A stretch of 64,000 nucleotides of DNA. Source: Bdellovibrionia bacterium (lineage in GTDB: Bacteria; Bdellovibrionota; Bdellovibrionia; Bdellovibrionales; JAGQZY01). The notes under the pieces were generated by a model that was not told the origin of the DNA, did not search any database, and was given only the letters and a program-made list of their open reading frames with translations. The DNA lies in contig JAUICP010000004.1 of assembly GCA_030427805.1 (NCBI GenBank), positions 350,705 to 414,704 of the forward strand, read 5' to 3'. Position numbers and translations under genes: made by a program. Below, piece after piece: positions 26,534 through 53,658 of the stretch. Position 1 is the first letter of the stretch, and each line of letters starts with the position of its first letter.

Positions 26534-26716
26534 AACGATTACCTTTTTATAAAAGCCCAATAATACAACGGCTTAACACCACTTAATTATAAGCATGGTG
26601 GAATTGTTAAGACACCTTAATATGGGCGAAACAAGCGTTTTAACTTGAGAATTCCACTCAATATTTACTCCATTCACGACGATAGTCTATCTATATAGTG
26701 CATTGAGGAACGTTGG

Positions 26717-32700: not shown

Positions 32701-35700
32701 AACACATACAAACAACCTCACGACCGACCTCACAATTACTGGAGATACCGATGCGGTTGCTTGGTGGGTCGACGAAAGAGCTGATGCCGCTTCTGCCCCG
32801 AGCGCACCTCTTTATAATGATGGAGCTTGGCTTGGTACAAGACCTACCACAATTGATATGGGTGGAAACGGCCTAAGAAAAGTCTATGTTTATACAAAAG
32901 ATATTGCGGATAATGTCTCTGTTTCTGCAGCGACACAAACAATCTACTATGATCCAGTTGCTCCAGGTGGTGCACTTAGTATTGTCGGAGTCGCCGGTGG
33001 TGCCGTTGATAGTACCTATGATACAACATTGAGTGCAAGCCTGACTCCTACCATTGCTTTCTTACCAGCCACCGACGCGACATCAATTACCTATACTATG
33101 AATGTCCAAACTCTTGCCAGTGCTGATGCCTGCACTCCTGAAGTGGTTACATCGTCAGACCCCCTTGAGTTTACGGGGTGTACCCTCACTGACGGTGTTA
33201 CTTATAAAGTACTATTAACAGCAACCGATCAAGCCGGTAACATTTCTGCCGCCAGTAACAGTGGTACTTTTCAATTTACCGTGGTCGACGGGCTCGCACA
33301 GTTTGTCGTGACGAAAGTGCTTCCTGGTAATGCGGTTTCTGATACCTCTTTCGATATTCAAATCGAGGCACAAAATGCTGGTGGTAGTACTGTCACAGCC
33401 TATGACGGATTTAAAACAATAGACTTTTCAACGGACGGAAGTAACGGTGGCACGAGATGTGGGGCCAGTGGCGGCGCACTTATTCCAAGTACTCCTGGTC
33501 AAGATGCCTCGATCAATTTCAGCAATGGTTTTGCCACAGTTTCTGTGACCCTCAAAAAAGCGGAATCGGGAGTGAGTATTTCCGTGCAAGAAGATGGTTC
33601 CGCTGTTGCCGGGACTCTCAGCGGCCTTACCGTCGATGCGGGAGCACAAAATTGTATTCGCATTGAAACCGCTAACGATGGAAGTGGCGCTTTACTAGGC
33701 GCCCAAGCATTGAGTATCGATGGAATTTTCTCAGCACACGCTGTGGCTTATGACTCACAAGGAAACTTCCTTAGTTCTCCGAGTGTCAACTGGTCGGGTT
33801 CAGCTGATCTAGCCCAACTTCCTATTCCTACAACAGGCAGCAGTACTACTATTGTTGCCTCTAAATTAGGTTCAGGGAATCTTACTGCAAGTGGCTCTTC
33901 GGACAGTGTTTCCGTTACAGTTTCTGGGGGTACCGTCGACCGTAGCTTTACTTCTAGTAGCTTCGATAACGAGAGTGTTAATCATCTTGAAGACGATAGT
34001 ATTGAACTCATTAAGCAATGGGATGTGAGTAGCGATAATGTTGTCGCCTGGAGAACTGACTCTGGTCTCAGTTGGCACACCGAAACTAAAGGAACAACAA
34101 CCCGTGGTACTCGGGCCAATTTCCCCCTTCAAGCGCGACTTGCCTTGACTTCAGACAGTCTAGAGATTCTTGATGCCGCTTCAAACGATCTCTTTATGCG
34201 TTTTGATCGCGGCCCAGGGTTAGCTCTAGATACGGGCCTTGGTAGCATCACTTCTCTCGATGCAAGAGATGGAATGATCTTTCTTGGCTATGACGATAGT
34301 ACAAATGGAGCTCTAGTCATAATTGATTTGGCCAATGATAATTTTCATAGACTGACGGCAAGTGATAATCTTATTTTCAACAGGGACATTTCCCAAAGAA
34401 ATTCTGCCGGCACGTGGAGCGGCGGCACATCGGGCTATCCACAACTCACAACATCCGGCGATAGGGTCTACTCTTTGGCTGCCCATAATGACGGAACTGA
34501 CTCCTTTGTCGCGGTAGGTACACAAAATGGTATCAATGTACTTAGACTTACGGGCACACCAGGTACCTTTAAAAATACGACGGCGAACCCTGTACAACAG
34601 ATCCAAATTGCCTCTGACGATAAACTCTACTTTTTTGAAGAGACTGTCGGTCTCAATCGATCCGATATATCCTTGCCCCTGGGCAGTGACTTCCCTGTGG
34701 ATCACACCTATACTCTGACTTCAGCAGGCGAGCTACTTACCCTTGATGCCAATGGCATGAGCCTGCAAGAATCAAGGTCCGCTGCTGATCCGGGACAGAA
34801 CCTTATATTTATCGCAAGTGATAAGGGCCTTTCCGCCATCCACGAACACTCAACCGATACCAGTGCCGAGTCAAAGAACTTTGTACTCAGCGGAAGTGGA
34901 TCTTATCCTTTTTCGGGGGCACTCGCTCTAGACGGTACATCAGGAACTCTCTCTATTGCCAACTCCGCGAGTATGACAAATAGTTTAACTATCGAATTCT
35001 GGTTTAAGCCTGATGCGACATTAAATAGTGGAAGTGCTGCTTCTGGAATATTTTCAGTTGGAAGTCCAACCGTAGATGGTTTCATGGGCCTCACCCACAA
35101 CGCAAGTGCTGACGGTAAACTTGAGTTTTCAGTTCGTCACTCTGGCTCTACCTATAAAGTCGCTAGTACTGAAACCTCATTCTCTGCCAATACATGGTAC
35201 CACGTAGCGGTTACTATCGATGGGGCCAGCGGAATTGATATGTGGATTAATGGAAACAACAATCAATTCAACCCTATCGATCTCTCCGGATTTACTCCAG
35301 AGGGGGCCAGTAATTTGATTTTCGGTAGTGATGGTACTAATTATTTTGCGGGACTTATCGACGAAATTCGAATTTCATCTTCTGCGGTTTATTCGACAGC
35401 CAGTTTTGCGGTTCCAGGAACGGAACTGTCTAATGTAGGCGCTATTCACCTCTTCCATCTCAACGAAAACAGTGGTGGTACTGCTGCTTATTCTGATACC
35501 GATGCCATGGTCAATGGGACTCTCGGTGGAAATTCTCTTTTTGTTTATCCACTGATTCCGGGAAGTTCTCAAAGCATTAAGGATCTTAGCTCGATCACCC
35601 ATTCAGGATCGACTTCCACACAAATTATCACATCAAACTACTGGTATGAAATATCTAACTCTGATGATGTTGAAGGTACCACTTCGAGTATGAGTGACAG

Positions 35701-35815
35701 TCTCAGCCTCGGGAGTGGAGTCAACCAAGCCGAAGTGTACAATATTGATTCTTCAACTGACTACGACCTACTCCTCGGGACACCAGCCAATGGTTTACGC
35801 ACTCTTAGAGAGTAG
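26717..35815 (+). CDS. giant surface lipoprotein (3032 aa) with many Ig-like beta-sandwich repeats and a C-terminal LamG/concanavalin-like domain
   Basis: The TTG start lies 7 nt after GAGGAA. The lipobox is ...LPILLTSC. Long T/S/G/N/D/V-rich repeats have the recurring pattern A..F.VTV.A.D..GN. The C-terminal LamG-type signature at about 34900-35400 reads LTIEFWFKPD...WYHVAVTIDG...NYFAGLIDEIRISS. Confidence 0.85.
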   Translation: MKKITQIRHNLFHFAFDLVNHKSIGSLLPQACKLVFTLTLPILLTSCLEKSGNDQVSSGTLGLELKIMSGNNQDGDPNRLYSESLTVMVQDASGDAVKDIEVEFFEISSKGAYVTNASGKTNSSGQVSTDVRAPTSHGASIIIGARIRNSSTGVEFNLSTSDTPEGGRFKVTSTNSGTEMAGDAFGFKVELVGETGGLLDYNGTVTTQWLIDTQESWGKVAPSVLPATYDCVFIGGVCDIPAIVTLTDAENITYIYMGDGVEGFQDVFAQPIIVQKNVAEKVVVVKNAPGGPAAGAEVLADEILNTDMAMFKIYGAITDKAGNYITDAGSVTWTSDRTEITNNLVDNGDGSADFTPAKTIPFPTRGKIFADVAPYPQGSSGNLAIDPGAPAEILMIPSDSNYIRTAGEYMKFRLEVRDANNNLVGQNNTNQGYTGAINVKLEFADYLSDDEVAGGVVPEVMLPSADGAPEYSRFDFESFQATEYNFVTQFSAGLSSVGEISRGIVFWDGTSVSPKITVTATSASLGDVSTTTTFNVVPGPEYRIQLRDGPGASGKSVCEARYGTTAGDSTSLDEYFSVYTGDQNQAGRPQASSPCTGMNFQAGDAPVTFYYALEDRAGNYLGPATASLDLMVNSSATSDFDGQFSPVGTSASTTLTPLGVTSSNDNWIDVIGTVNGSTMYSRFEGDIDPANLDKFVIGMYDGDARRFKTDGVIFAGKVRELQIRALDQYGNTINNFGTTSFPYNRDFNIALSAPFNLSPNGTPPSFIGLGNQTLSFQGGVAKYFITLTNTSDTPTLSMTDLHMTNPKPVDPLTFDIRAGDPSYIELRTALDGGGVDYTNQVMNLTTDDAVVIFANIFDGLGNYKTCSNVDWIYPGLTYFNPADSMVFTDVGCSTFLQPQKPTIAASRLGAYYTWTDSDGNDFIITAQTDDITVDTGNLATMQVAPDSLNLEAGETTNVTVTLKDAKGNTLSDTGTKGVAITSVDNGITRLGHAQSLSNTSSLDFIAGEATFTATFYNSTKTPSLNLSTTSAPFVSGQTSAFTITSAPLDHLWLRTGGGLTEVDAGVSNTYAIFAEDAWGNRLTSGLGSAIDVTFELTNPALTTQDILSTTLTGATSVAGPNDTSVTGNLTAGAAQVQVVSTTAGEMQVNGTSTAGIIEGNNTEEYLQIMPLSTIDHISFNPAPKLTHTASPSLPIFPFSVELRDIYDNVITTENSETIDITLDTGTGSISGTTNKSVSAGKVQFDDLIYTKAEAITLRASLDSDGGKTITAPITVNVGGATQSIVALPDQIFTEGVSSLGAAISGGSFSGTNAVDVGTPFVVKVYVVDDAFNKSSGYGFPVTLTSTDPNAVISAPVVPIGGEATFNVTMKSQGNHTFTASASGVTNEDSTSFAANPLAASQLLVLLPGQVLEEGADNLDDAIDNPATTTQTAGTAFNVTVVAVDNYYNKVTDKDGSSVSITTSDPNDAHPSSENLASGEATFSVTNLTALSNQKVVPSGAAITPRDSELYDIAPGTAIKTIVRMPGQSHNPGTISYGTALQNAASDQAAGVSFTVDVYAVDAYFNIDTNYNGALSIVTPGDPNDTEPVAPTNFSSGQASFTINPVKANSGQQISVSSGLNDVAHAPASYDVNPGAKRFLLSLFDNQSLTQGVTSLAAAVTPTAIPAKNAGDSINITVYGTDIHYNVINDGSLVSVSTTAPNDDHPAAKNLVSGSTTFTIQNYKSGTGYTVSASGGGYPVSQASNTYNINAGSVTNVIALLPGESLSEGHDTFAEASSGNPSDQTNGVYFPVTLYSTDNYYNRVNSSVTVDISAPLGTAASSGSTSFAGGSMVQINLQHSASGSNQVVRPSSTLNDIDSDQYDVVASLSAPTLALSDPNTSSTSYARQQNIDVNITNGATIAFWCLSESQSSNPSLGVNNRGTCTGGTGGAGAGWHSSKPGGFNLSAGDGNKTVYLWVADSANNVYGTAESDTIYLKTSKPAVPSVALEDPDSSSTTHTNNLTTDLTITGDTDAVAWWVDERADAASAPSAPLYNDGAWLGTRPTTIDMGGNGLRKVYVYTKDIADNVSVSAATQTIYYDPVAPGGALSIVGVAGGAVDSTYDTTLSASLTPTIAFLPATDATSITYTMNVQTLASADACTPEVVTSSDPLEFTGCTLTDGVTYKVLLTATDQAGNISAASNSGTFQFTVVDGLAQFVVTKVLPGNAVSDTSFDIQIEAQNAGGSTVTAYDGFKTIDFSTDGSNGGTRCGASGGALIPSTPGQDASINFSNGFATVSVTLKKAESGVSISVQEDGSAVAGTLSGLTVDAGAQNCIRIETANDGSGALLGAQALSIDGIFSAHAVAYDSQGNFLSSPSVNWSGSADLAQLPIPTTGSSTTIVASKLGSGNLTASGSSDSVSVTVSGGTVDRSFTSSSFDNESVNHLEDDSIELIKQWDVSSDNVVAWRTDSGLSWHTETKGTTTRGTRANFPLQARLALTSDSLEILDAASNDLFMRFDRGPGLALDTGLGSITSLDARDGMIFLGYDDSTNGALVIIDLANDNFHRLTASDNLIFNRDISQRNSAGTWSGGTSGYPQLTTSGDRVYSLAAHNDGTDSFVAVGTQNGINVLRLTGTPGTFKNTTANPVQQIQIASDDKLYFFEETVGLNRSDISLPLGSDFPVDHTYTLTSAGELLTLDANGMSLQESRSAADPGQNLIFIASDKGLSAIHEHSTDTSAESKNFVLSGSGSYPFSGALALDGTSGTLSIANSASMTNSLTIEFWFKPDATLNSGSAASGIFSVGSPTVDGFMGLTHNASADGKLEFSVRHSGSTYKVASTETSFSANTWYHVAVTIDGASGIDMWINGNNNQFNPIDLSGFTPEGASNLIFGSDGTNYFAGLIDEIRISSSAVYSTASFAVPGTELSNVGAIHLFHLNENSGGTAAYSDTDAMVNGTLGGNSLFVYPLIPGSSQSIKDLSSITHSGSTSTQIITSNYWYEISNSDDVEGTTSSMSDSLSLGSGVNQAEVYNIDSSTDYDLLLGTPANGLRTLRE
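30562..32330 (+). repeat. five tandem ~118-aa (about 354-nt) divergent coding repeats inside the giant lipoprotein
   Basis: Repeat units begin at about 30562 (ALPDQIFTEG), 30918 (LLPGQVLEEG), 31272 (RMPGQSHNPG), 31627 (SLFDNQSLTQG) and 31981 (LLPGESLSEG). Each unit contains F.V.VYAVD.YYN...S..DPND...P..L.SG.A.F. Confidence 0.8.
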
Positions 35816-35885
35816 AAACTGACCCAGTTTAATGTTGGGCACTAAATCAATGCGCCTGGCTCCCCTAATGCAGTATCTCTAATCC

Positions 35886-36770: not shown

Positions 36771-36811
36771 TTCACTTTATAAATTGAATCCAAATTCTTT
36801 GATTGAGGGAT

Positions 36812-36959
36812 GAGGAGAATCATTCTTTGTGGAAAGTATTATGGGGGTTCATTTTTAGGGCTCTTGCCAGCCGGATGCGACCCGGGCAAGAAGGGCAGGA
36901 GCCCGGCCCTAAAAATGGACTCCCAGGATACTTGGAACAAGTAGAATTTGATTCTCCTC
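36812..36959. repeat. 148-nt imperfect palindrome with a GC-rich branched apex (structured RNA or MITE-like element)
   Basis: Nested complementary arms are present. These are GAGGAGAATCA (36812-22) / TGATTCTCCTC (36949-59), AAGTAT/ATACTT, TGGGGGT/ACTCCCA, and TTTTTAGGGC (36852-61) / GCCCTAAAAA (36906-15). The apex contains two local hairpins, TCTTGCC...GGCAAGA and GGGC-AGGA-GCCC. The apex is much more GC-rich than its flanks. Confidence 0.6.
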
Positions 36960-36989
36960 GTTCCAAAAACACAGGAATTTGGGTCAGTT

Positions 36990-37592
36990 TTATTGCTGAT
37001 CCCATTTTTCGATGGTCTCAATAAGAACTTTTCGCCTCCGAGCGAATTCATCAGCATTCGATGTAGCAAGGGCCTCTGTCAGCGAAACACTGGCCATAAA
37101 TCGTTCCCCATTACTAAGACTCTGATCCTTTTCGAGGAGTCTCATCCAGCGAATCAATTGGTCGTTTGGCGACTTTCCGAGTGAACGAAAAAGAGTTAAA
37201 CGAACCTGCGAAGATCTGTCATTGTACAATCGATTCATTGCTTGAAAGCTCGCTTCACTGGGAAAGTAAGGTAAGGTCCTTGCAGCAATGGTTCTAAATT
37301 CTGGAGACGAAGATTTTTCCATTTCCATCGCCTTTTTAAAGGCATAGAATTGTCCTTCTGAAGCCAGGTATTCCATGGCGTCGGCCACCTTTGCAAGATC
37401 CCCGTTCTTCCAATCTTCTAGGACCGATAAACTATCGCGCTCGCGCTTAGAAGCCGCTCGATCTGATTGAACCTTTTTAAAGGCCCCGTAGAGACCAATA
37501 CTAACGATTGTAAGACCGATTAAGAAAAATGAATTTTTAAGAAACCACTGTTTCGCCTTAGAAACTTCTGTCGTGTTTTCATTAAGGTCCAT
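36990..37592 (-). CDS. single-TM helical-repeat (HEAT-like) protein, last gene of the stator operon
   Basis: The ATG at 37592 lies 9 nt after GGAG and overlaps the motB end by 11 nt. The TM segment is FFLIGLTIVSIGLYGAF. The rest is alpha-helical repeat-like (RTIAARTLPYF...QVRLTLFRSLGKS). Confidence 0.6.
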   Translation of the reverse strand: MDLNENTTEVSKAKQWFLKNSFFLIGLTIVSIGLYGAFKKVQSDRAASKRERDSLSVLEDWKNGDLAKVADAMEYLASEGQFYAFKKAMEMEKSSSPEFRTIAARTLPYFPSEASFQAMNRLYNDRSSQVRLTLFRSLGKSPNDQLIRWMRLLEKDQSLSNGERFMASVSLTEALATSNADEFARRRKVLIETIEKWDQQ

Positions 37593-38328
37593 TTGACTCA
37601 TCTCCGAATTGCGGCGGAGCCACAGCAGGACTCGGCTGCTTAACAATTCCAGGAGCGACAACCTTTAAAACCACTCGGCGATTCAGCTCCCTATTTTCGG
37701 GAATAACATCGCCGTCCCTATTGCGATTGGGAAAGGCCGGACGCCCCTCTCCATACCCCATGGCGACCAGTAAATGCTTTGGATACCCCGCCTTCTCGAA
37801 AACCTTAACGACAGTCGCAGCGCGGGCCGCGCTCAACTCCCAGTTTGACGGAAACTTTTCAGTTGAAATAGGTATATCATCAGTATGGCCCGCCACTAGA
37901 ATTTCTGCTGAATTCACTGTTTCAAAGATAACCTGGGTTAAAGTTTCAAGACTGGCTTGGGCCTCGGGTAGCATATCGGCTGAGCCTAACTTAAAGAGTA
38001 AAACTGACCGAAAGGTAATTTCTAATCCATCTTTGACTGGATTGAGCTGAAGTTCCGATATAATACCGGTATCTTCCATTTCTTCTTTCAGTTCCTCTAA
38101 CTGCTTTGCTAACTCTTCATAAGGAACCGAATAGGTTCCTCCAAATTGTTTAGCAACGCTCTTTTTCATTTCTTCCTGACTGGTTTCTTTGGAGGCAGAA
38201 AAGACGTACATCAAAACAAAAAAACCAAAGAGCAAAGTCATCATATCAGAATAGGAGATGAGCCAAATTTCATCGTTTTCTCCACCGCCTGAGTGATCAT
38301 TTAAAGGAGAGGACTTGTGATCTAACAT
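37582..38328 (-). CDS. motB: MotB-type stator protein with an OmpA-like peptidoglycan-binding domain
   Basis: The N-terminal plug/TM region with the conserved Asp is IWLISYSDMMTLLFGFFVLMY. The C-terminal OmpA-like block is VAGHTDDIPISTEKFPSNWELSAARAATVV...NRRVVL. The ATG shares one nt with the motA stop. Confidence 0.85.
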   Translation of the reverse strand: MLDHKSSPLNDHSGGGENDEIWLISYSDMMTLLFGFFVLMYVFSASKETSQEEMKKSVAKQFGGTYSVPYEELAKQLEELKEEMEDTGIISELQLNPVKDGLEITFRSVLLFKLGSADMLPEAQASLETLTQVIFETVNSAEILVAGHTDDIPISTEKFPSNWELSAARAATVVKVFEKAGYPKHLLVAMGYGEGRPAFPNRNRDGDVIPENRELNRRVVLKVVAPGIVKQPSPAVAPPQFGDESNGP

Positions 38329-39131
38329 CAGGCCGCCTTTTGCGAACTCGAATTAATAGATTTCCAATCCACCCGTTCCGCGGGAAGGAGGTAGGAATTG
38401 AGTTCTTCGACCATGATGACGCGATTCTTATTTTCGGCGATGAGCTTCAGACCTTCGGCAACCAAGCGGTTTTTGATCCAAAGTTCTTTGGCACCATCTT
38501 CGAGGTGATCGGCGATGGGTAAAATAATTAAATTGGCAAAGGCGATTCCATAAAGAGTTGCAACGAGTGCAACCGCCATAGCTGGACCAATGGTTTTTTC
38601 TGCACCTGGCTTACCAATTTCTTTAAGTAGCGCAATCATACCCAATACCGCTCCCATGAGACCCATTGCTGGAGGGAACTTGCCAAGGGCTTTAAAACGT
38701 CTGGCGTCCTCAGAATACCGGTTGTATATGGTCATCGCACGAACGGAGAGAACCTCGTGAAGTTTCTCAGGGTCCATATAACCTTCAGCGAGCAGCATCA
38801 CTCCTTCTTTTACAAAGTGATCCTTAATACTCGGGTAAATATTTTCGTAGGATTCACCCTTGCGCCTTTTCTCGGCAACAAGAAGGAGTTCCTTCATCAC
38901 ATCGACGTATTCGACTTTGTAGGTTCGAATGACTCGCAAATAGAAAATCTTCATCATTAAAATAATTCGATCCATTTGCAGTGAGATAGCCGCCACTGCC
39001 ATAGTCCCACCGAAAACGATGAGTGCGGCGTGCCAGTCGACAAAAGCCATAAAGTCATCGGTGGCCGAATAAACGCCAAAGACGAAGACAAAGACTGCGA
39101 GGAGTAAAGAGGCAATCGACGAAATGTTCAT
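38328..39131 (-). CDS. motA: MotA/PomA-type stator channel protein
   Basis: At 267 aa with four TM segments it has normal MotA size. The conserved prolines are in context: GKFPPAMGLMGAVLGMI and LYGIAFANLIILPIADHL. A charged cytoplasmic loop is present (VAEKRRKGESYE). Confidence 0.85.
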   Translation of the reverse strand: MNISSIASLLLAVFVFVFGVYSATDDFMAFVDWHAALIVFGGTMAVAAISLQMDRIILMMKIFYLRVIRTYKVEYVDVMKELLLVAEKRRKGESYENIYPSIKDHFVKEGVMLLAEGYMDPEKLHEVLSVRAMTIYNRYSEDARRFKALGKFPPAMGLMGAVLGMIALLKEIGKPGAEKTIGPAMAVALVATLYGIAFANLIILPIADHLEDGAKELWIKNRLVAEGLKLIAENKNRVIMVEELNSYLLPAERVDWKSINSSSQKAA

Positions 39132-39152
39132 AAGTACTTCCCCTTTCTCGTC

Positions 39153-39737
39153 CTAAAAACTAAGTCCTGCAAAAAATCGAAAAACTGTGGCATCGACAGT
39201 CACTGAGGAAATCCCCGTCCCACGGGTCGCAGTAAACTGAAACTCCACATTTGTTTTTTCGAGAACTCTGTAGAGAGCTCCAATATTAAATCCGTACTCG
39301 AATAAGGTCGACTGTACAGTCAATGCGGGAGTCGGCGTATCGAGGATGAGTTGTGATATCCCGAGTTGCCATCCGGCAAAAAATCGTCTCTTTGGAGACA
39401 TGGACAAACTACCGACATCGGAATCAATATCCGTGGTTCTACCTTTTGAGAGAAAATACAATTTCTGCCCACCACCCGCAAAAAGGTAGCGATATTGAGC
39501 TTCGGCAGGGTCCAAGGCGATGATCGCGTTGGCGTATATTGACGTGCTCTCAGATATGAAAATCTCAAATTCCCCGTCAACGCTGGTAATTAAACTAAAA
39601 TCTCCAGACTGCGCTCCGGTAAACGAAGTCGAAATCAAGCCAGAACGCAAGTGTAACTGCAGGTCAAGAGCACTGACTTCTAGTGCAAAGAGAGCAAAGC
39701 CCATAAATACAAGACAGAATCTAAGCCACCTGGTCAT
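39153..39737 (-). CDS. small outer-membrane beta-barrel protein
   Basis: The signal peptide is MTRWLRFCLVFMGFALFALEVSA. The sequence alternates between hydrophobic and polar residues in beta-strand fashion. The C-terminus is ...VFRFFAGLSF, with a terminal Phe. The gene overlaps the upstream gene by 17 nt. Confidence 0.65.
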   Translation of the reverse strand: MTRWLRFCLVFMGFALFALEVSALDLQLHLRSGLISTSFTGAQSGDFSLITSVDGEFEIFISESTSIYANAIIALDPAEAQYRYLFAGGGQKLYFLSKGRTTDIDSDVGSLSMSPKRRFFAGWQLGISQLILDTPTPALTVQSTLFEYGFNIGALYRVLEKTNVEFQFTATRGTGISSVTVDATVFRFFAGLSF

Positions 39738-41700
39738 TTTGACTCCGCCCCCTGTAAAATTGCTCTAACCAATTATCGGCCAATCTCTCAGCCTCTGTTC
39801 TAAAGCTCGTATTATTCTTTACCACCTCGCGAGTCATATTAAGGAATGATCTCAGGTTTAGATCTTTCTCTGCCAAAACCGTGCGCTTTCGACTATCTGA
39901 TAATTCAATTTGCTCGATCTCGGCATCAATAATGTCTCTAATTTTCGAACCACTAAACCCACTTAAAATCTTATCTTTTTGTAGGTCTTCGAGACCGTAA
40001 ATCAGTTCCGCCCGCTTTGACAGTGGCCACTTCTCAAGGGAGAAGTTTAATATCTCATTTGGCAATTCAAATAGAAGATTCATCGGGTAGATATCCATAA
40101 CAATTTCAAAAGCCTTAGCCTTTGGCACTGACTCAATAAGTCTCTGGTATAGAAAGTTTTCTTTCTCTGGACCAGCTTCGCGCAAGAGCTGAGGAATTCT
40201 CTCAACAAAAGGAGATGACTCTTGGCGATGGCTTCCGACAACCTGATCAATGGTTTGTTTGATTTCTTTTTGCCTCGACGCAAGAGCCTCTTTATCAAAT
40301 TCAACACTAATACTCGTTACTCGCTCGACCTCTTTTGGCGTCAGGAGATTCAAAATTTGCGCGACCTGAAGAGTCGGCAAAACGTTTAGAATCAAGGCTC
40401 CCACAATTTCGTTCTGGCGAATAGCATCACAACATTCTTGGGGAGAAAGACCTGAGATCAATTCAACGAGGTCATCACTGAGCCCCTCTTCTGGCTTGAT
40501 TCTCAGCTGCACAATCTGTTTTGAAATATAGAGTGAAGCCACTTGGCGCTCGCGGGCACCAGTATTGATCTCTGTCGCTTCAGCCCAACGCCTTCTCTCA
40601 TCTCGATCAAGACGACTCACAATGGGCTCCATAAATTCAGAGCCAAGAAATTCCGGTAATACCGCCACCGCATACTGTGGTTCTTTATGACTCGAAGCAA
40701 GCCATCCTTTAATAAGGATCGCAGCGTCTCCTGGACGCGATTGAATCAACTTTTTAAATTCATTAAATCCTCGAGCTAACTCATCATCACTAAGTGCCGT
40801 AAAATCTTCTTCTTTAGTTGCTCGATCTTCATTCTCTATGTATCGAGCCCGTGCATCGGCCTCTTCTCTTTCACTTTTGGCCTGCATAATTGCAATTCTT
40901 TGACTCTCGAACTTTTGATACCGAGAAGAAACGACAAGTCCTAAAAGGAAAAGAACAAAGGTCGAAAGTATGATACCAATCGGAATCTTGAACTCAACGA
41001 GCCAATCCATAACCGTTTTCTCAGGAATTTTCGCTGTAGCCTTCTCTTCCGAAGCAAGGTCCTTTTGCCCTTCGTTTTTTTCCTCTTCTTTTTTAGCGAG
41101 TTCTTCTTTTGTTGGCTCAGGAGGTCTCTTTAATGCAATTGTTTGGGACTGTAGACTGGGCTCCGGAAGACTACTACTGGTAACTATTTGCTGAATGAGT
41201 GTTTGCGCCTTTTGATTAACATCTTCGCTCACTTCTTCATCGACAATAAAGAGAATTTGCACAGAAGATACGTAATCCTCAAAGGGACGAACATTTAATC
41301 GAGTCACGCGCTGAACACTCTGGGGCCTCTTGTAAAGACCCAGTTTTGTGAGTGGCAAGAGTGGCTCACTCGCTTGATTTCCCTGTGGCTCGTAGACAAT
41401 CGTCTCTTCGATTTGTCTTGGAAGGTCTTGTCTCATCAGAGCTGTGTTTAAATTAATTTTTACTGATAGGGAAATCTCATCTTTTTTCAAAAAGTTGAGA
41501 AGAGTCGACGTAATTTTCTGCTCCAGGCGGTACTCCGCCTCTGATCGTCTTTCTGCCATGTATTTTAAAAATGAGGTGGTATCTGCTTCGGCACCATAGA
41601 CGGATAAAGTCCCCATCAATGCAGTGAGACACGAAGCCATTCCCAAGAGTTGGCGCTTATTAAATTCTAACTTGAAAACACGAAGTAGAAATAGAAGCAC
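39721..41700 (-). CDS. membrane-anchored FliG-like protein with a periplasmic FliF/YscJ-like ring-building motif (659 aa)
   Basis: The N-terminal signal is followed by about 200 aa that include ISLSVKINL...SSVQILFIVDEEVSEDVNQKAQTLIQQIV, which has the RBM-like alpha-beta-beta-alpha pattern. The TM segment is IPIGIILSTFVLFLLGLVVSS. The cytoplasmic part shows the three FliG-type helical modules: YAVAVLPEFLGSEFMEPIVSRL; NEIVGALILNVLPTLQVAQILNLLTPKEVERVTSIS; PLSKRAELIYGLEDLQKDKILSGFSGSKIRDIIDAEIEQIE. The GTG start shares one nt with the upstream stop. Confidence 0.55.
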   Translation of the reverse strand: MLLFLLRVFKLEFNKRQLLGMASCLTALMGTLSVYGAEADTTSFLKYMAERRSEAEYRLEQKITSTLLNFLKKDEISLSVKINLNTALMRQDLPRQIEETIVYEPQGNQASEPLLPLTKLGLYKRPQSVQRVTRLNVRPFEDYVSSVQILFIVDEEVSEDVNQKAQTLIQQIVTSSSLPEPSLQSQTIALKRPPEPTKEELAKKEEEKNEGQKDLASEEKATAKIPEKTVMDWLVEFKIPIGIILSTFVLFLLGLVVSSRYQKFESQRIAIMQAKSEREEADARARYIENEDRATKEEDFTALSDDELARGFNEFKKLIQSRPGDAAILIKGWLASSHKEPQYAVAVLPEFLGSEFMEPIVSRLDRDERRRWAEATEINTGARERQVASLYISKQIVQLRIKPEEGLSDDLVELISGLSPQECCDAIRQNEIVGALILNVLPTLQVAQILNLLTPKEVERVTSISVEFDKEALASRQKEIKQTIDQVVGSHRQESSPFVERIPQLLREAGPEKENFLYQRLIESVPKAKAFEIVMDIYPMNLLFELPNEILNFSLEKWPLSKRAELIYGLEDLQKDKILSGFSGSKIRDIIDAEIEQIELSDSRKRTVLAEKDLNLRSFLNMTREVVKNNTSFRTEAERLADNWLEQFYRGRSQNDQVA

Positions 41701-42377
41701 TAGTTTCCACCTCCACCAGTATTTGCTGGCAATCGACCCCGACCCAATCGCTTTTCAATGTATTGAATAATATTTCTTGTTTCTGGATTATTGGGTTCGT
41801 ATCGTACCGCTTCTCTGAATGAGCTTAGGGCCCGAACAAAGTCGTTCTTCAACAGATAAATCCCACCCTTCAGTTCGTGTATGACTGAAAGCCTTGGCTC
41901 CTTCTCTCTGAGTTTTTCAAGTCGTTCTAATGCCACATCGTAATTACCTTCGCGGGCCAAGTTTTGACTATCAAAGAGTTCCGAAATAAGTTCATTTTTT
42001 AATTTGGCTTCGCTAGCCTCTTTTAAAAGGGCCTCTTGTTCGGCTTCTTCACTATCGGACTCTGGTAAATCTGTTCTTTTACTCAGGCGGATATTTAACT
42101 TCAAATCAAAACTAGAATCGACCTCAGTTAACAAAACATTTTGCGGTATATATCCGTCCTTTTCGAAGAAAATTAAAATCGGTCCACTTCCCTCAACGAG
42201 GCTTTCAAGCTGAGAACTGGAAAGAGCCAGTGGAGTTTCCCCCGCCGGAACTCGTTTCGAGCCATCCATACGACGCACTTCAACTTTTGCGCCCGTTGGA
42301 AGTGAATCAACCGACACATTATTCGTTGCACATGAAACCGTAAAAACCAGTAAAGGCCATAAATAACAGACTCTCAT
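41700..42377 (-). CDS. lipoprotein with a PEGA domain and a TPR C-terminus
   Basis: The signal/lipobox-like sequence is MRVCYLWPLLVFTVSC. The PEGA pattern is SLPTGAKVEV...GETPL...ILIFFEKDGY. The TPR-like segment is GNYDVALERLEKLREKEPRLSVIHELKGGIYLLKNDFVRALSSFREAVRYEPNN. Confidence 0.65.
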   Translation of the reverse strand: MRVCYLWPLLVFTVSCATNNVSVDSLPTGAKVEVRRMDGSKRVPAGETPLALSSSQLESLVEGSGPILIFFEKDGYIPQNVLLTEVDSSFDLKLNIRLSKRTDLPESDSEEAEQEALLKEASEAKLKNELISELFDSQNLAREGNYDVALERLEKLREKEPRLSVIHELKGGIYLLKNDFVRALSSFREAVRYEPNNPETRNIIQYIEKRLGRGRLPANTGGGGN

Positions 42378-42432: not shown

Positions 42433-43506
42433 TTGAAATTTGTTTCTCGGTCTAGGTTTTCTTCTTTAAAATGGGGAGTGATCTTAAAAAGAATTGTTCC
42501 CATCAGTCTAATCATTTTCTCCGTGGTGTTTTTCTACTTAGCACTTCAGGACCAATTCTCGATCGTAAAGAAGTATTTGTTCAAACCACCCCAGGGCCAA
42601 GAACTGGGCTGGATCTCAGAGAAGTCGAACAACGTCCTTAGACGATCTTTCGGAACTCCCTCTTATTTCGGAATAAATCAAGATGATGGGGTTTTCAATC
42701 TCGATTACATTTTTTCTGGTGAAGCTTCGTTTGTAACGGTTAATTTATCAGAACGATCATCAGTGAAGATTTTAGATAAAAGCCTAGTCATTTTCAGAAG
42801 CGAAAATGGAAAGACAGTAATCGATCTCAGAGATGGAAAGATGGAGTTAGACGTTGATCCTAAGGATCAAATAAAAATCAAAACCCAGAAAGAACGTCTC
42901 GACGTTTTAGGAGAAGAGCAAACCCAGATTAAGGTGTCCACAAAAGATGGTTTGTCGTTTTTAGAGGGCGGCGCAAGTGGTGGAAAAATCAGTCATAATG
43001 GTCTAACTCATGACCTCAGTGAGGCGGCTTACGGCATCGACGAAGAAGGTAAAGGAACTTCGACCGCTGATCTAGCGAGTTCAGAAAAGTCAGGAGAACT
43101 GGAACCCGATCAAAGTCAGGCGCGGCTTCCCGGTGGTGTTTCTGAAATGAAGGACATCCCCAAGGACCTTAAACGAAGAAATATTCCTGTTCCATATCCT
43201 CCAAATCAAATCGTTCTCTTTCATAAAAAGGGAATTGAACTTTTGGTTTATCCTCGAAAAACCTGTAAGGGTGAGTGTAAGATAAAGCTCTTTTATAATG
43301 AGAAACTCATAAAAACCGCTGGATTTAAGAATGGGGAAGAACCTTTTATTAGTCTCAAGGCTAATAAGGAACTCAACGGAGTTTTTACCTGGACCTATAT
43401 CGACTTTTCAGGACAGAAATCCGGAAGCTTTGAAGTCCGCAAATTTAATTCTGATGAATTAAAAAAGGCCATGAAAAATTCTAAACAAATCGAGATAGTT
43501 AACTAA
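42433..43506 (+). CDS. membrane-anchored protein with a FecR-like beta domain (hypothetical)
   Basis: The TM segment is IVPISLIIFSVVFFYLAL. The segment ASFVTVNLSERSSVKILDKSLVIFRSENGKTVIDLRDGKMELDV is FecR-like by eye. The start is uncertain (TTG 42433 or GTG 42478). Confidence 0.5.
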   Translation: MKFVSRSRFSSLKWGVILKRIVPISLIIFSVVFFYLALQDQFSIVKKYLFKPPQGQELGWISEKSNNVLRRSFGTPSYFGINQDDGVFNLDYIFSGEASFVTVNLSERSSVKILDKSLVIFRSENGKTVIDLRDGKMELDVDPKDQIKIKTQKERLDVLGEEQTQIKVSTKDGLSFLEGGASGGKISHNGLTHDLSEAAYGIDEEGKGTSTADLASSEKSGELEPDQSQARLPGGVSEMKDIPKDLKRRNIPVPYPPNQIVLFHKKGIELLVYPRKTCKGECKIKLFYNEKLIKTAGFKNGEEPFISLKANKELNGVFTWTYIDFSGQKSGSFEVRKFNSDELKKAMKNSKQIEIVN

Positions 43507-43550: not shown

Positions 43551-44327
43551 ATGAAGAATTTTTTGCTAGGCATTGCCGCCATCAGCATTTTTCTTAGTTT
43601 TGCGAGCATCCAAGTCAGCTTGGTTCTGAGCTTTGTCTGCCTTGTCATAACTGCACTTACTTTTAGAGAGCTACTTATCGAGCTTGAAAGTACGAATCAA
43701 ACCAACAGTACGGCCTTGACGATCAGCTCTCCAGAAGAGCCCCTCGAAATTTCAAGCGAAGAAATCAACTGGAATTCGATGGCAAAGACTCTCATCGCCG
43801 ATAAGTCCCATAAAATCAGCAGCGAAGAAGACTTACTAGAGTATATTGAAGATATTGAGTTTAGCCCAACCGATGAAATCGAAATTGAAAATTCTTGGGC
43901 ACAAATTGTGAGTCTTAAAAAACCTGAAAATGGTGTATCACTTTCAAGCCTTCAAAGCCTGGAGGCTTCGCTCACGGACCTGGATTTAAACAGAGAGGAT
44001 ACCCTTCTGGTCACTGATCTCGATTTCGGCCAAGAAAGTCACCTTTCATTAGCAAGTCTCATTAAAAAGAGAGTTCCCCTATCCAGAGTGATTTGCACGA
44101 AAATATTTGGTCGGGCCGATTTGATTCCCCTCATCGGAAACTTGCAAAATATCGGACTTCAGGAAATTACCAAGTTCTTTCAAGAACTCGAATCGAAATA
44201 CACCAACGTCTATTTTATTCTTTCAGACTCTCAATACATTCAGTGGGAAGCGGTGGTCCGAAGACTCAACTCTACTCGTCTTGTTGAGGAAGTTAAAATT
44301 CAAGAAGAACCTAGGCCGTACGCTTAA
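43551..44327 (+). CDS. hypothetical membrane protein (two N-terminal TM segments, acidic middle)
   Basis: The hydrophobic N-terminus is MKNFLLGIAAISIFLSFASIQVSLVLSFVCLVITALTF. No motif was recognised. Confidence 0.5.
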   Translation: MKNFLLGIAAISIFLSFASIQVSLVLSFVCLVITALTFRELLIELESTNQTNSTALTISSPEEPLEISSEEINWNSMAKTLIADKSHKISSEEDLLEYIEDIEFSPTDEIEIENSWAQIVSLKKPENGVSLSSLQSLEASLTDLDLNREDTLLVTDLDFGQESHLSLASLIKKRVPLSRVICTKIFGRADLIPLIGNLQNIGLQEITKFFQELESKYTNVYFILSDSQYIQWEAVVRRLNSTRLVEEVKIQEEPRPYA

Positions 44328-46119
44328 TAAATACTAAAGTAAAATCATCCTCGTACTCACAGCCCTGTCGGTATTGATCGACATCCAGTTGCACTTGCTT
44401 CATTGCCTGATTGAGATCTGCTTGTTTTGCCAAAGCCCCGAGGACCGACCTGATAAATTTACGCTCTCCCCAGTCTTTATTCTCTGGATTCTTCAACTCT
44501 GTCAATCCATCTGAATATACAACTAGATGCTGATGAGGCTCTAGTACCATGTCTGTTTGTTCGTATTCCACATCAACTCTTTCACCGAGTCTTGGGTGAT
44601 TGTTTTCGGCAAGCGTCTTTAAACTTCGAGGCCGAGTCTTTTCGTCGAATTCACGAGGCACGATAAAAGGTCTATTGTGACTGGCAATCGAATAACTCAA
44701 CCCACCACCTTCTTTATCAATTTTTACAACAAACGCCGTCATATTGACTTTTCCACGGGCTGTATCGTGAAGGGCTTCATTCATAGTTTTCAATACTTCT
44801 TTGGGTTCTTTTAACCCTTGTCTTTGCACCACCGAAAAGGCCGAGCGAGCGGCTGCTGTTAAAAGTGCGGCCGGAGCTCCATGCCCAGTAGCATCTCCTA
44901 CAAAAATCAGAACACAATCATCGTATTCATGATGGTACCACCAATCACCTCCACACTCAGAGGCTGGTTGGCAGTAGCCTTCTACTGAAAGCTCCTTGCT
45001 CCAGTAACTAGGGTTCGGAAACAAGGTGTCTTGAACCGTTCGAGCCGTTTCAAGTTCAGACTCGAGGCGACCCTTCTTGAGGCTTTCTAACATTAATCGA
45101 GATATTTCCTGACTCATTTTATTAAAGCTCTTTGCTAGCAAGCCCATTTCGTCTTGAGTCTTAACCTTTAAATCAACTTCGAAGTCACCTTCAGAAATTT
45201 GGTCTGTCGCCTTTTTAAAACTATTGAGTGGCGCTGTAATTTGATTCGAGAAAAAGAGGCCAAAGGCGAATAAACCAGCTAAAAGAGCAAAAAAGAGATA
45301 TACAATTTTCTCTACGGCGATGTAGATGGGCAACATAGCGAGTCCATAAGGAGATGCTATTACAGACTGAATACCAAAGTGATTGAGTTGATTAAAGGAT
45401 GCTAGATACTCTCTACCATCATCAGCCGATAGGAGTTTAGATCCATTAAAACTTTCAACACTTGCAAGTGATTTAAGAAACTCTGGTGACTGGGCATATT
45501 GATTGTTATTTGAAAGCAAGAGCTTTCCTCGATGATTGAGCAGTAGTGATATGTCACCACGATCATTACTAATTAACTTAAGGAGCTTTCTCATATCTAG
45601 GCTAACGAGAGCAATGTAGGATTCCGTTCCTTGGAATTTGTAAATTCCACGGGCAAATCCATGGTCATCGATCGGAAACAGACTCGCCGAGCGATCCCCG
45701 GTTTCTAGAAAGGCTTCAGCTCGGTCCCCCGAATTCCAATGTTCCAATCGATCCTGTTGAGGCTTACTCAGTTCCGCAATAAATTCAATTTCCCCACCCG
45801 GTGTTTTCTTATAAACCCCCATGTAGACAACATCTGATTGCCACTGCCACCGTGAAATCGCCTCGGCATTAAAACTCTGAGTCCTTGTATCGAGTTGTCC
45901 TAAGATAATTGATAAATCTCGATAGCTTTGTTTGATGTAGGTATTAAAGGTTTCAGATAAGCTTCGCGAATTTTGCAGCCCACTGTCGTAGAGGTAAGCC
46001 AATTTGTCTTTTTTAAAAAAGCCCAGCATTAGAACTAAGAAAGTCCCCAATCCCAAGATGAGAATGGCTGAAATCATCATTAGTATTTTTGTTCTCAGAG
46101 GCCATTTCAAAGAAGTCAT
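44311..46119 (-). CDS. membrane sensor phosphatase: periplasmic sensor + HAMP + PP2C/SpoIIE (RsbU-like)
   Basis: Two TM segments flank a domain of about 250 aa. The HAMP segment is TAPLNSFKKATDQISEGDFEVDLKVKTQDEMGLLAKSFNKM. SpoIIE motifs are GGDWWY, FVGDATGHGAPAAL and VVYSDGLTE. The start is ATG 46119 or GTG 46125. Confidence 0.8.
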   Translation of the reverse strand: MTSLKWPLRTKILMMISAILILGLGTFLVLMLGFFKKDKLAYLYDSGLQNSRSLSETFNTYIKQSYRDLSIILGQLDTRTQSFNAEAISRWQWQSDVVYMGVYKKTPGGEIEFIAELSKPQQDRLEHWNSGDRAEAFLETGDRSASLFPIDDHGFARGIYKFQGTESYIALVSLDMRKLLKLISNDRGDISLLLNHRGKLLLSNNNQYAQSPEFLKSLASVESFNGSKLLSADDGREYLASFNQLNHFGIQSVIASPYGLAMLPIYIAVEKIVYLFFALLAGLFAFGLFFSNQITAPLNSFKKATDQISEGDFEVDLKVKTQDEMGLLAKSFNKMSQEISRLMLESLKKGRLESELETARTVQDTLFPNPSYWSKELSVEGYCQPASECGGDWWYHHEYDDCVLIFVGDATGHGAPAALLTAAARSAFSVVQRQGLKEPKEVLKTMNEALHDTARGKVNMTAFVVKIDKEGGGLSYSIASHNRPFIVPREFDEKTRPRSLKTLAENNHPRLGERVDVEYEQTDMVLEPHQHLVVYSDGLTELKNPENKDWGERKFIRSVLGALAKQADLNQAMKQVQLDVDQYRQGCEYEDDFTLVFIKRTA

Positions 46120-46162
46120 GGCCACTTATCGGAATTCTTAACCGAAGGACTGAGCCTAAAGT

Positions 46163-50178: not shown

Positions 50179-50192
50179 AGCTGTCCCCGTTT

Positions 50193-53654: not shown

Positions 53655-53658
53655 ATCC

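Follow-up and report, generated by a model that had tools for sequence, protein, structure and literature searches.

Flagellar-type stator proteins are encoded here side by side with a protein that resembles both FliF and FliG, with no other flagellar gene nearby, and the question that this locus raises is whether such a gene set makes up a machine other than the flagellum. An earlier note on this DNA had proposed a self-contained six-gene operon for a nonflagellar rotary or force-transducing device. We investigated the genes, their relatives in other genomes, and their neighbors; the whole 64-kb stretch of DNA analyzed is referred to as the window.

The gene cluster and its conservation

All six ORFs are present on the minus strand and are packed as closely as had been described (table 1). 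Down the operon, the first two gene pairs overlap by 1 and 17 nt, the third is separated by 21 nt, and the fourth again overlaps by 1 nt, followed by an overlap between motB and the HEAT gene of 11–80 nt, the size being set by the choice of start codon for the latter; the true start is likely an internal ATG near 37592–37601. Comparison with a 94%-identical relative (L002) gave dN/dS values of 0.00–0.07 at a dS of ~0.5 for each of the six genes, which are thus real and under strong purifying selection; the MotA protein is 100% identical between the two although dS is 0.45.

Table 1. Genes of the cluster and of its flanks in the window.
Product	Position	Strand	Length	Remarks
TPR lipoprotein ("TPRlipo")	41700..42377	minus	225 aa	
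FliF/FliG-like fusion	39721..41700	minus	659 aa	putative rotor-ring protein
Small secreted beta-rich protein ("barrel")	39153..39737	minus	194 aa	
MotA/PomA-type stator A	38328..39131	minus	267 aa	
MotB-type stator B	37582..38328	minus	248 aa	
HEAT-repeat protein	36990..37661	minus	223 aa	longest ORF
Giant putative surface lipoprotein	26717..35815	plus	3032 aa	lipobox LLTSC, Ig-like repeats
FecR-domain membrane protein	42433..43506	plus		divergently transcribed; FecR 1.6e-5
Membrane protein	43551..44327	plus	258 aa	function not assigned
HAMP-SpoIIE (PP2C) membrane phosphatase	44311..46125	minus		SpoIIE 5e-32, HAMP 8e-15

A neighborhood comparison across related loci reduced the proposed six-gene set to a conserved core of five: the TPR lipoprotein, the FliF/FliG-like fusion, the small putative outer-membrane protein, MotA, and MotB. 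These families occur together in all loci anchored on the fusion gene except one (L011), which has no motAB within 10 kb. In the reverse test, with long metagenome loci anchored on MotA alone, a fusion-like gene was found in 27 of 34 loci and all five families in 21; in three loci (L046, L064, and L090), the MotA subfamily is present with no fusion gene within 7 kb. Gene order is kept across proteins of only 20–30% identity. The sixth gene was correctly read as HEAT-like (HEAT_2 at 8e-5, under the gathering score, in the window protein and at 2e-10 in its positional orthologue in L001), but it does not belong to the core: apart from the window, L001–L004, and a few metagenome loci, no locus was found to carry the family, it is missing from L012, and the protein is 223 aa long in the window and L002 versus 364 aa in L003. 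This membrane-anchored HEAT-repeat protein is a lineage-specific accessory. Only 20 of the 120 closest listed MotA relatives are named, and all 20 are uncultured Bdellovibrionales MAGs; cultured carriers are not formally excluded. We found no published description of the cluster.

The absence of flagellar genes around the operon was upheld throughout. A Pfam scan of ~36 ORFs of the window found no other flagellar gene, and phmmer searches with 24 Escherichia coli flagellar structural and export proteins and with chemotaxis proteins gave no match in the 64 kb. Nor does the operon sit inside a flagellar cluster in its relatives, as FlgA-L, FlhA/B, and FliE-R had zero phmmer matches in ~900 kb, comprising the window and 90 related loci (loci only, not whole genomes). 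Unlike in a flagellar system, genes for FliM/N, export apparatus, rod, hook, and filament are thus missing near the cluster.

A FliF/FliG-like fusion, a flagellar-type stator, and putative outer-membrane partners

The 659-aa protein, searched as a single sequence, matched no Pfam and no NCBIfam model. Its family comprises about 294 representatives at 50% identity clustering, and the family profile bore out the FliG/FliF homology suspected from the sequence: among PDB structures it matched FliG (3ajc, E=1.6e-9), a Vibrio FliF–FliG fusion (8z4d, E=6e-7, with an alignment collinear along the chain), Salmonella FliG (8umx, E=1e-5), and FliF (E=4e-4 to 5e-4). In a Foldseek search with an AlphaFold2 model built with the alignment (pLDDT 85.9), ranks 1–12 were all full-length FliG (probability 0.99–1.00, ~214–335 columns), and hhalign aligned the protein to residues 107–305 of E. 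coli FliG.

The predicted architecture starts with an N-terminal signal peptide and a periplasmic alpha-beta-insert-beta-alpha-beta domain with a 55-aa insert (residues ~41–190), followed by a charged linker, which is variable in the family, a transmembrane helix (~236–260), FliG N/M/C-like cytoplasmic domains (~305–600), and a two-helix C-terminal extension in which R624 is invariant and W644 nearly so. In the AlphaFold2 model, the order of elements in the periplasmic fold is that of FliF RBM3 with its collar insertion. Sequence and structure support for a FliF RBM is modest (E ~1e-4; hhalign probability 42%, to the start of RBM3 in E. coli FliF; Foldseek E>1), and the periplasmic part is interpreted, with moderate support, as one FliF-RBM3-like ring-building motif.

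Few of the stretches inspected in the family are as well conserved as the torque helix, whose motif GSKxR[DE]xx[DE]xE is kept in 77–98% of 126 members. The position of K586, which aligns with FliG R281, is K or R in 97/126 and that of R588 in 101/126; D589 is conserved in 121 and E594, which aligns with FliG D289, in 124. In contrast to FliG, the fusion does not conserve the FliM-binding motif (EHPQR), in whose place stands QNEIVG. It further differs from the flagellar motor in that FliF-like and FliG-like parts form one polypeptide, in its C-terminal extension, in possessing a single RBM, with RBM1 and RBM2 (the export-gate housing) missing, in beginning with a cleavable signal peptide instead of a first transmembrane helix, and in having a TPR lipoprotein and a small outer-membrane-type protein as operon partners. 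Engineered or mutant FliF–FliG fusions are compatible with motor rotation. Salmonella deletion-fusion mutants and the Vibrio fusion (PDB 8z4d/8z4g) likewise join the modules covalently at 1:1, but these laboratory constructs contain full-length FliF, whereas the proteins described here are natural, much shorter (~600–800 aa), and a family of their own.

It should be noted that MgtE_N matched 11 of 19 fusion-family members and that the MgtE structure 2oux was matched at E=0.008. FliG-like ARM domains are found also in the N domain of MgtE, which counts against the rotor-stator explanation; the fusion lacks the CBS and transmembrane domains of MgtE, and the FliG C-domain, torque helix included, is missing from MgtE.

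The stator had been described as flagellar-type, with a normal-sized MotA and a peptidoglycan-anchored MotB, and all of this holds. MotA (PF01618 at 4.8e-21) crosses the membrane in four helices and has a short loop in the cytoplasm, and its best NCBIfam models are the flagellar stators PRK09109, PomA, MotP, and MotA (1e-33 to 1e-38, all below cut-off), compared with 7e-4 for TolQ; the stator does not belong to the TolQR/ExbBD type. MotB carries MotB_plug (3.3e-15) and OmpA-like (2.8e-13) domains and best matches MotD (8.5e-47). With its plug, OmpA domain, and short loop, the stator falls into the flagellar class (classification in PMC12505986). The equivalents of E. coli MotA P173 and P222 are invariant in all loci compared and that of the MotB channel aspartate D32 is kept in 5/5; within the MotA subfamily, R90 is R or K in 48/52 sequences, D104 is conserved in 50/52, E109 is E or D in 52/52, and F106 is also conserved. 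Both proteins nevertheless score under every NCBIfam flagellar equivalog cut-off.

For the 225-aa protein, read earlier as a PEGA and TPR lipoprotein, the TPR part was confirmed (TPR_2 at 3.3e-6; TPR structures matched by the family profile at E down to 2.8e-34) and the Cys lipobox is kept in most orthologues, but PEGA remains unproven, with one marginal match in six orthologues (E=0.099). It is probably a lipoprotein whose N-terminal domain is beta-rich and PEGA-like and whose TPR repeats lie at the C-terminus, and its family was found in each fusion-anchored locus of sufficient length. The 194-aa protein had been taken for an eight-stranded barrel ending in Phe. Its alignment displays a signal peptide and eight alternating amphipathic segments; the C-terminal residue is aromatic in most, not all, orthologues, and the family, which is kept in both cluster arrangements, has no Pfam or PDB match. 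An outer-membrane beta-barrel is therefore putative only.

Recurrent neighbors of the cluster

The description of the operon as self-contained holds only in part, given several recurrent partners on both flanks. The giant lipoprotein ends in a Laminin_G_3 domain (1.7e-19), and its homologues adjoin the cluster in L002–L004 and also in L012, where the gene lies on the other flank. Other giant proteins flank it in L001, L010, L011, and L097 (8811 aa in the last). Giant surface proteins are close by in most loci, with different families in different loci, and the giant lipoprotein is a candidate cargo or output element on neighborhood evidence only. The FecR-like family is kept in L002, L003, L004, L012/13, and L097, a conserved accessory or regulator, and the family of the 258-aa membrane protein, which has no Pfam match, in L002, L003, L004, L007, and L012/13, a conserved accessory. 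HAMP-SpoIIE homologues adjoin the cluster in L002, L012, L020/22, L028, L061, L097, and L098; this phosphatase is a likely regulator, its control of the machine being speculative. Response regulators and CheA-like kinases also recur as neighbors in related loci.

A proposed rotor-stator machine and its alternatives

Because MotAB and a FliF/FliG-like fusion occur without any other flagellar gene nearby, we favor, at a probability of roughly 0.55, a stand-alone proton-driven rotor-stator machine that derives from the flagellar motor core and is not a flagellum. The nonflagellar device proposed earlier is in this respect supported, with rotation and a nonflagellar role inferred and not demonstrated. 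Plug-gated MotA5B2-type stators, fixed to peptidoglycan by the OmpA-like domain of MotB and presumed to conduct protons as the channel residues are intact, would push on the FliG-like C-domain at its conserved, charged torque helix; this contact is inferred from homology and residue conservation, without a model of the complex. One transmembrane helix would join the FliG-like domains covalently to the RBM3-like motif, which may oligomerize into an inner-membrane/periplasmic ring (no oligomer was modeled). The lack of a FliM-binding motif, FliM/FliN, export gate, and rod suggests a one-directional rotor whose output is confined to the envelope. Strict co-conservation points to a coupling of the ring with the TPR lipoprotein of the outer membrane and with the small putative barrel, and the most likely output would be the movement, or the outer-membrane translocation or display, of the adjacent giant repeat-rich surface proteins, possibly, though speculatively, controlled by the HAMP-PP2C phosphatase and the FecR-like membrane proteins. 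Our best reading is a nonswitching machine possibly working on giant surface proteins, a function that is untested. There is no experimental evidence for the machine, which limits this explanation.

Such an output would be analogous to GldLM of the type 9 secretion system driving SprB. GldLM (PorLM) is an inner-membrane proton-driven 5:2 motor acting on giant repeat-rich adhesins (PMC13104615, PMC9389320), and the path from motor through periplasm and outer-membrane lipoprotein or ring (GldKN in Bacteroidota) to adhesin is shared as a concept. No Gld or Por sequence similarity was detected in the cluster, however, and whereas periplasmic GldM itself rotates, the peptidoglycan-anchored stator described here would turn a separate FliG-like ring. 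The Agl–Glt system of Myxococcus and Bdellovibrio, from the same broad predatory group, likewise spans the envelope, is driven by protons, and includes TPR and outer-membrane components, but AglRQS is TolQR-type without an OmpA-like anchor, Glt homologues are absent near the cluster, and we know of no FliG-like partner of Agl.

Unlikely, but still to be reckoned with, is a force-transducing or signaling device with neither continuous rotation nor a rotor ring. The fusion would then be a TonB/TolA-like adaptor or mechanosensor linking MotAB to the periplasm or outer membrane, with possible roles in powering the exposure of the giant lipoprotein at the surface or in signaling through the PP2C phosphatase. 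Elongated adaptors are indeed how the 5:2 motors ExbBD and TolQR work (PMC9389320). The variable charged linker between RBM-like domain and membrane, the phosphatase, FecR-like, response-regulator, and CheA-like neighbors, and a weak resemblance of one of six TPR lipoproteins to the Slam TPR domain (E=0.11) would also fit. The conserved torque-helix charges are, however, what a rotor-stator contact predicts, and MotB keeps a peptidoglycan anchor, as fixed stators typically do. Furthermore, RBM-type and FliG folds are, to our knowledge, ring-forming modules in all characterized cases.

More doubtful is the possibility that the cluster encodes accessory parts of an ordinary, possibly sheathed, flagellar motor: an alternative MotAB set with a scaffold, in which lipoprotein and barrel would play the part that the FlgP/FlgO or PflA/PflB disks have in Vibrio and Campylobacter motors and the FliG-like protein would serve to dock stators, or to store them, close to the motor. 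Flagellar accessories in other phyla do include TPR proteins, lipoproteins, and small outer-membrane proteins, and all three motAB pairs of Bdellovibrio reportedly contribute to swimming. The stator is of the flagellar class (PMC12505986), and Bdellovibrio bacteriovorus has several flagellar motAB pairs apart from its other flagellar genes (PMC11323537), so that missing flagellar neighbors are weak evidence; the host may additionally own a normal flagellum served by these stators. Nevertheless, a full FliG N/M/C module with torque helix duplicates a rotor and not a scaffold, and it lacks the FliM-binding motif. A flagellar gene is never adjacent in the ~900 kb, both stator proteins fall under the equivalog cut-offs, the profiles revealed no resemblance to FlgP, FlgO, or Pfl proteins, and the named MotA relatives are all uncultured MAGs.

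A Zorya-like antiphage defense system, or another nonmotor use of MotAB, is very improbable: MotB matches the PADLOC ZorB models (2.7e-20) because of generic MotB homology, but MotA has neither a ZorA match nor, at its size, the long ZorA tail, the other cluster proteins match no PADLOC model, ZorC/D-like genes are absent, and the neighbors are envelope and surface proteins. That the cluster is a decaying, functionless remnant of a lost flagellar system, of which only motor-core homologues remain, is effectively refuted by the selection on all six genes, by the size of the fusion family, and by a gene order that has outlasted the divergence of the proteins.

The 659-aa fusion protein

Taken as a single sequence, the 659-aa protein had no Pfam or NCBIfam match (no YscJ_FliF, and none to FliG_N, FliG_M, or FliG_C above the gathering score) and gave only noise in a search of the PDB. 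A word-indexed homologue search recovered the query alone, both for the protein and for its family profile, and a scan with the single protein found two close relatives only. An exhaustive HMMER search revealed a family that, clustered at 50%, has 294 representatives (236 with E<=1e-10), mostly of 600–800 aa and with a common architecture. The profile of 126 members of this family matched, within the PDB, Thermotoga maritima FliG (3ajc, E=1.6e-9), a Vibrio FliF–FliG fusion chain in collinear pieces (8z4d, 6e-7), Salmonella FliG (8umx, 1e-5), FliF (4e-4 and 4.9e-4), and MgtE (8e-3); aligning the family to the single E. coli FliG sequence with hhalign covered residues 107–305 (E=3.5e-4). Per-sequence Pfam searches of 19 members gave MgtE_N in 11 and isolated weak matches to FliG_M and FliG_N (one member each, E ~0.02–0.03), so the FliG homology of the family is seen at profile level only.

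The AlphaFold2 model reached a pLDDT of 85.9 with the family alignment, versus 46.7 without it, and its Foldseek matches 1–12 in the PDB were all FliG (probability 0.99–1.0, 214–335 aligned columns), including the full-length structures 3hjl and 8umx. The three-domain (N, M, C) armadillo-like fold of FliG is thus present in the model, and the FliG homology that the earlier note had suggested was borne out by both profile and structure. We regard the FliG fold and a remote homology to FliG as established, though the protein falls outside both canonical families, FliG and FliF.

In FliG, a charged torque helix faces MotA (E. coli R281, D288, and D289). The family motif G-S-K-x-R-[DE]-x-x-[DE]-x-E falls on this helix in two independent alignments, both of which place K586 on R281 and E594 on D289, with a hydrophobic residue at the D288 position. 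The K586 position is K/R in 97 of the 126 members, the E594 position is E/D in 124, and the motif positions are conserved in 77–98%; by both alignments the torque helix is present across the family. The FliM-binding EHPQR segment is not conserved, the aligned stretch being QNEIVG, and neither the window nor 90 related loci contained a FliM/FliN homologue.

From N- to C-terminus, the model and alignment indicate a signal peptide, a periplasmic alpha–beta–insert–beta–alpha–beta domain, a variable charged linker, a single transmembrane helix, a long helix, the FliG N/M/C-like domains, and a two-helix extension, in which R624 is invariant and W644 nearly so. This shows that a module of FliG fold, its torque-helix charges conserved, is fused to one that comprises the membrane and RBM-like part. 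The periplasmic domain (helices 41–67 and 159–175; strands 76–84, 144–154, and 182–188) takes on the topology of an RBM in the model, and an insert of ~55 aa, modeled with low confidence and carrying a nearly invariant Lys, is placed where FliF RBM3 bears its collar. The profile matched the start of FliF RBM3 (E=4.9e-4), as did hhalign against the single E. coli FliF (residues 237–270, E=2.6e-4, probability only 42%); FliF MS-ring chains ranked after FliG in Foldseek, with probabilities of 0.72–0.89 but E>1. A relationship of this domain to FliF RBM3 is therefore moderately supported. The full FliF architecture (TM1, RBM1, RBM2, RBM3, TM2) is absent: a lone RBM-like domain of ~150 aa lies between the signal peptide and the single transmembrane helix.

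It should be noted that many of the FliF/G-like members and several linked MotA proteins end in Ala–Ala (...SQKAA, ...TSAAA), recalling ssrA-like C-terminal degrons; regulated proteolysis may be involved.

The gene set, its stator, and its neighbors

The six minus-strand ORFs that the earlier note had described, encoding a TPR lipoprotein (225 aa), the fusion protein, a putative outer-membrane barrel (194 aa), MotA (267 aa), MotB (248 aa), and a HEAT-repeat protein (223 aa), were present exactly where it had placed them. The junctions it gave hold at three places as overlaps (1, 17, and 1 nt) and at one as a gap of 21 nt, but the motB/HEAT overlap is 11–80 nt depending on the start codon. Consensus scans of the cluster for promoters and terminators scored at or below chance and give no information on transcript structure.

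Positions of features in the window and in related loci (L handles denote loci anchored on the fusion family or the MotA subfamily)
Sequence	Position	Strand	Feature
Window	3316-5139	-	ORF, 607 aa
Window	9264-10832	-	ORF, 522 aa
Window	10861-14715	-	ORF, 1284 aa
Window	17872-24701	+	Ligation/modification-like gene run
Window	24704-26560	-	Ser/Thr protein kinase, 618 aa
Window	26717-35815	+	Giant lipoprotein, 3032 aa
Window	35816-36990		IS-like element
Window	35816-35835, 36971-36990		Its 20-nt terminal inverted repeats
Window	35886-36770		Its ORF, 294 aa
Window	36990-42377	-	Six-gene cluster
Window	38328-38336	-	Ala–Ala terminus
Window	39721-39729	-	Ala–Ala terminus
Window	39721-41700	-	Fusion protein, 659 aa
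Window	42433-43506	+	FecR-domain protein
Window	43551-44327	+	Membrane protein, 258 aa
Window	44311-46125	-	HAMP-SpoIIE phosphatase
Window	49513-57115	-	Dioxygenase/dehydrogenase gene run
L003	6128-7222		HEAT-repeat protein
L010	1281-5293		Two-component regulators
L011	12719-15482		Two-component regulators
L067	793-1797		Separate FliG-like protein beside motAB
L074	3840-6941		Separate FliG-like protein beside motAB
L079	4262-6885		Separate FliG-like protein beside motAB
L098	16954-19424		Pkinase gene, then PEGA-domain gene

MotA matches PF01618 (4.8e-21) and the flagellar stator models of NCBIfam (1e-33 to 1e-38), and MotB matches the plug (PF13677) and OmpA-like (PF00691) domains, its best NCBIfam model being MotD (8.5e-47). 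The equivalents of E. coli MotA P173 and P222 and MotB D32 are invariant in all loci compared, and among 52 members of the MotA subfamily the R90 equivalent is R/K in 48, with D104, F106, and E109 essentially invariant. Four transmembrane helices, charged cytoplasmic loop, key residues, plug, and peptidoglycan-binding domain are all in place as in flagellar-type MotAB/PomAB stators, which shows an intact flagellar-type proton channel with its peptidoglycan anchor. In a published classification of stators, where “FIT” stands for the flagellar type with a short loop (PMC12505986), the MotAB of the cluster is such a stator. Equivalog-level identity to MotA, PomA, MotP, or MotC/D is not reached (best scores of 131 bits for MotA, where the cut-off is 237, and 160 for MotB, where it is 283). 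Since neither protein comes close to any of the flagellar equivalog cut-offs, the two constitute a subfamily of their own.

When genes in the loci anchored on the fusion protein were assigned to families with local iterative HMMs, two arrangements emerged. The first (TPR lipoprotein, fusion, “barrel,” MotA, MotB, with or without HEAT) is that of the window, L001–L004, L007, and L012/13; the second has two or three unknown genes, “barrel,” TPR lipoprotein, and fusion, with motAB convergent nearby in L005 and L010 and not found within 10 kb in L011. For the reverse test, metagenomes were scanned with the MotA subfamily alone, counting loci that extended 4 kb or more to either side (n=34): a fusion-family gene was present in 27/34 and all five core families in 21/34, and the fusion gene accompanied the best-scoring MotA in 26 of 29 loci. 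The stator subfamily and the FliF/G-like family are therefore mutually linked, with a core of five genes, and a strict genetic linkage of stator and fusion with two envelope proteins is shown. The six-gene operon claimed previously to be self-contained is not fully so: the HEAT gene is lineage-specific, and conserved partners lie beyond the cluster. Variants among the MotA-anchored loci include more divergent fusions of 700–812 aa and, in a few, a stand-alone FliG-like gene of 324–370 aa beside motAB. All named relatives are MAGs (Bdellovibrionia, Pseudobdellovibrionaceae, Bdellovibrionales, Bdellovibrionaceae, or simply Proteobacteria), and no cultured organism occurs among the named members, a minority, of the 120 closest MotA relatives listed.

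Where the FliG-like protein is separate (L079, L074, and L067), an ORF of 517–657 aa before its gene may be the split-off membrane/periplasmic partner; if so, these loci represent a natural unfused form of the rotor protein.

The 225-aa protein has clear TPR repeats behind a beta-rich N-domain and a lipobox-type Cys in most orthologues, which supports the TPR lipoprotein part of its earlier annotation; the PEGA part is only marginal. In the 194-aa protein a signal peptide is followed by eight amphipathic segments that alternate, its family has no Pfam or PDB match, and 3/9 aligned orthologues lack an aromatic residue in the last three positions; an outer-membrane barrel remains a reasonable guess, made without a structure prediction. 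The membrane-anchored HEAT-repeat protein has 223 aa in the window and in L002, a 94%-identical relative, versus 349–364 aa in L001, L003, and L004; ~140 C-terminal residues are missing in the window lineage. An IS-like element fills precisely the space from the stop codon of the giant gene to that of the HEAT gene; its ORF has no Pfam match and encodes an N-terminal Cys-rich zinc-finger-like motif. The element is absent from L002, where the two genes are ~19 nt apart; as the same 223-aa gene occurs there, the element was rejected as cause of the truncation.

The 3032-aa protein bears an LLTSC lipobox and Ig-like repeats, with a Laminin_G_3 domain at its C-terminus. Homologues adjoin the cluster in L002, L003, and L004, and lie on its other side in L012; other very large fn3/Ig-type proteins flank it in L001, L005, L010, L011, and L097 (8811 aa in the last), and 19 of 34 long metagenome loci contain an ORF >1000 aa. 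Recurrent near the cluster are also the FecR-domain protein, the 258-aa membrane protein, and the HAMP-SpoIIE phosphatase.

Just upstream of the giant gene, and divergent from it, lies a Ser/Thr protein kinase gene, and in L098 the Pkinase and PEGA-domain genes lie <10 kb from the cluster; together with the recurrent HAMP-PP2C phosphatase, such kinase genes suggest Ser/Thr phospho-control. Runs of three or four single-domain response regulators, an Hpt protein, a hybrid histidine kinase, or CheA-like kinases adjoin the clusters of L010, L011, L050, and L077; these regulators, found with the second arrangement and in some metagenome loci, stand in place of the SpoIIE phosphatase.

Alternative readings and a proposed rotary machine

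The main rival explanation is that the gene products serve an ordinary flagellar motor, as accessories or as alternative components. B. bacteriovorus has three motAB pairs, reportedly the subject of work by Morehouse in 2011. Flagellar motAB pairs of Bdellovibrio likewise stand apart from flagellar clusters (PMC11323537). Of 24 E. coli proteins of flagellar structure and export used as phmmer queries, none had a match in the ~900 kb of the window and 90 related loci, where only generic CheY-like and CheA-like regulators matched. The absence of flagellar genes near the cluster, as noted earlier, is thus confirmed: no switch, export, or axial genes are nearby, and the export gate, rod, hook, and switch genes that a whole flagellum would need are absent from this stretch and these loci. 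These are loci and not whole genomes, and a flagellum encoded elsewhere is not excluded.

A motor of the TolQR/ExbBD/AglRQS type could be rejected, in agreement with the earlier note, given the plug and OmpA-like domain in the B subunit and the flagellar-model scores (TolQ only 7e-4 vs. 1e-38, ExbD 0.21). A Zorya-like defence system, which would have a ZorA with a long C-terminal tail and ZorC/D, was likewise rejected; the sole PADLOC match was generic ZorB to MotB, with no match to ZorA or for any other gene. A pseudogenised flagellar remnant was rejected on the strength of dN/dS of 0.00–0.07 at dS ~0.5 for each of the six genes against L002, a Bdellovibrionia MAG, by which the ORFs are real genes; the MotA protein is identical despite a dS of 0.45.

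In our view the cluster encodes a machine of a new kind, assembled from modules already known, its function unproven. We infer, without a multimer model, that the fusion protein would form a ring turned by MotAB; this ring would not switch, because it would be unable to bind FliM, and its periplasmic part may communicate with the TPR lipoprotein and the small outer-membrane protein. More speculatively, the output could be movement or outer-membrane translocation of the neighboring giant surface proteins, under phospho-regulation. With a probability of about 0.4, the cluster represents an undescribed envelope-spanning rotary nanomachine of uncultured Bdellovibrionales: a flagellar-core-derived FliF–FliG fusion ring with dedicated MotAB and no axial or export structures, driving or exporting giant surface adhesins, a candidate for the unidentified surface-motility or prey-contact motor, and the first nonflagellar use of FliG–MotA torque.

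To our knowledge, FliG–MotA torque generation occurs in the flagellum only, and we know of no other 5:2 motor (ExbBD, TolQR, AglRQS, GldLM, ZorAB) that does not work with different partners. A full-text literature search found no published account of a cluster like this one, nor of a FliF–FliG fusion that occurs naturally and has its own stator. No such system is named in reviews of 5:2 motors or in one of gliding, and the latter states that the gliding motor of Bdellovibrio is unidentified, for which the cluster with its giant surface proteins would be a testable candidate in related lineages. If the rotary machine is real, it would be a new class, and the published view that only flagella use flagellar-type stators (PMC12505986) would need qualification. 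It would also offer a natural minimal rotor of one polypeptide without a switch, attractive for structural and single-molecule torque studies, and bear on flagellar-motor evolution, either as an offshoot that became simpler or as what remains of a rotor older than the flagellum.

Other genes of the window

A plus-strand run encoding asparagine synthase, a GNAT/ATP-grasp fusion, an M42 aminopeptidase, a putative zinc metallopeptidase, and a D-Ala-D-Ala-ligase-like ATP-grasp enzyme looks like a small peptide/amino-acid ligation and modification cluster. Pfam gave no match at all for three large ORFs (1284, 522, and 607 aa). A further run, operon-like, codes for two LigB-type extradiol dioxygenase subunits, aldehyde dehydrogenase, asparaginase II, RidA/L-PSP, a luciferase-like monooxygenase, and a short-chain dehydrogenase, suggesting an aromatic ring-cleavage pathway that would be unexpected for a Bdellovibrio-like genome.
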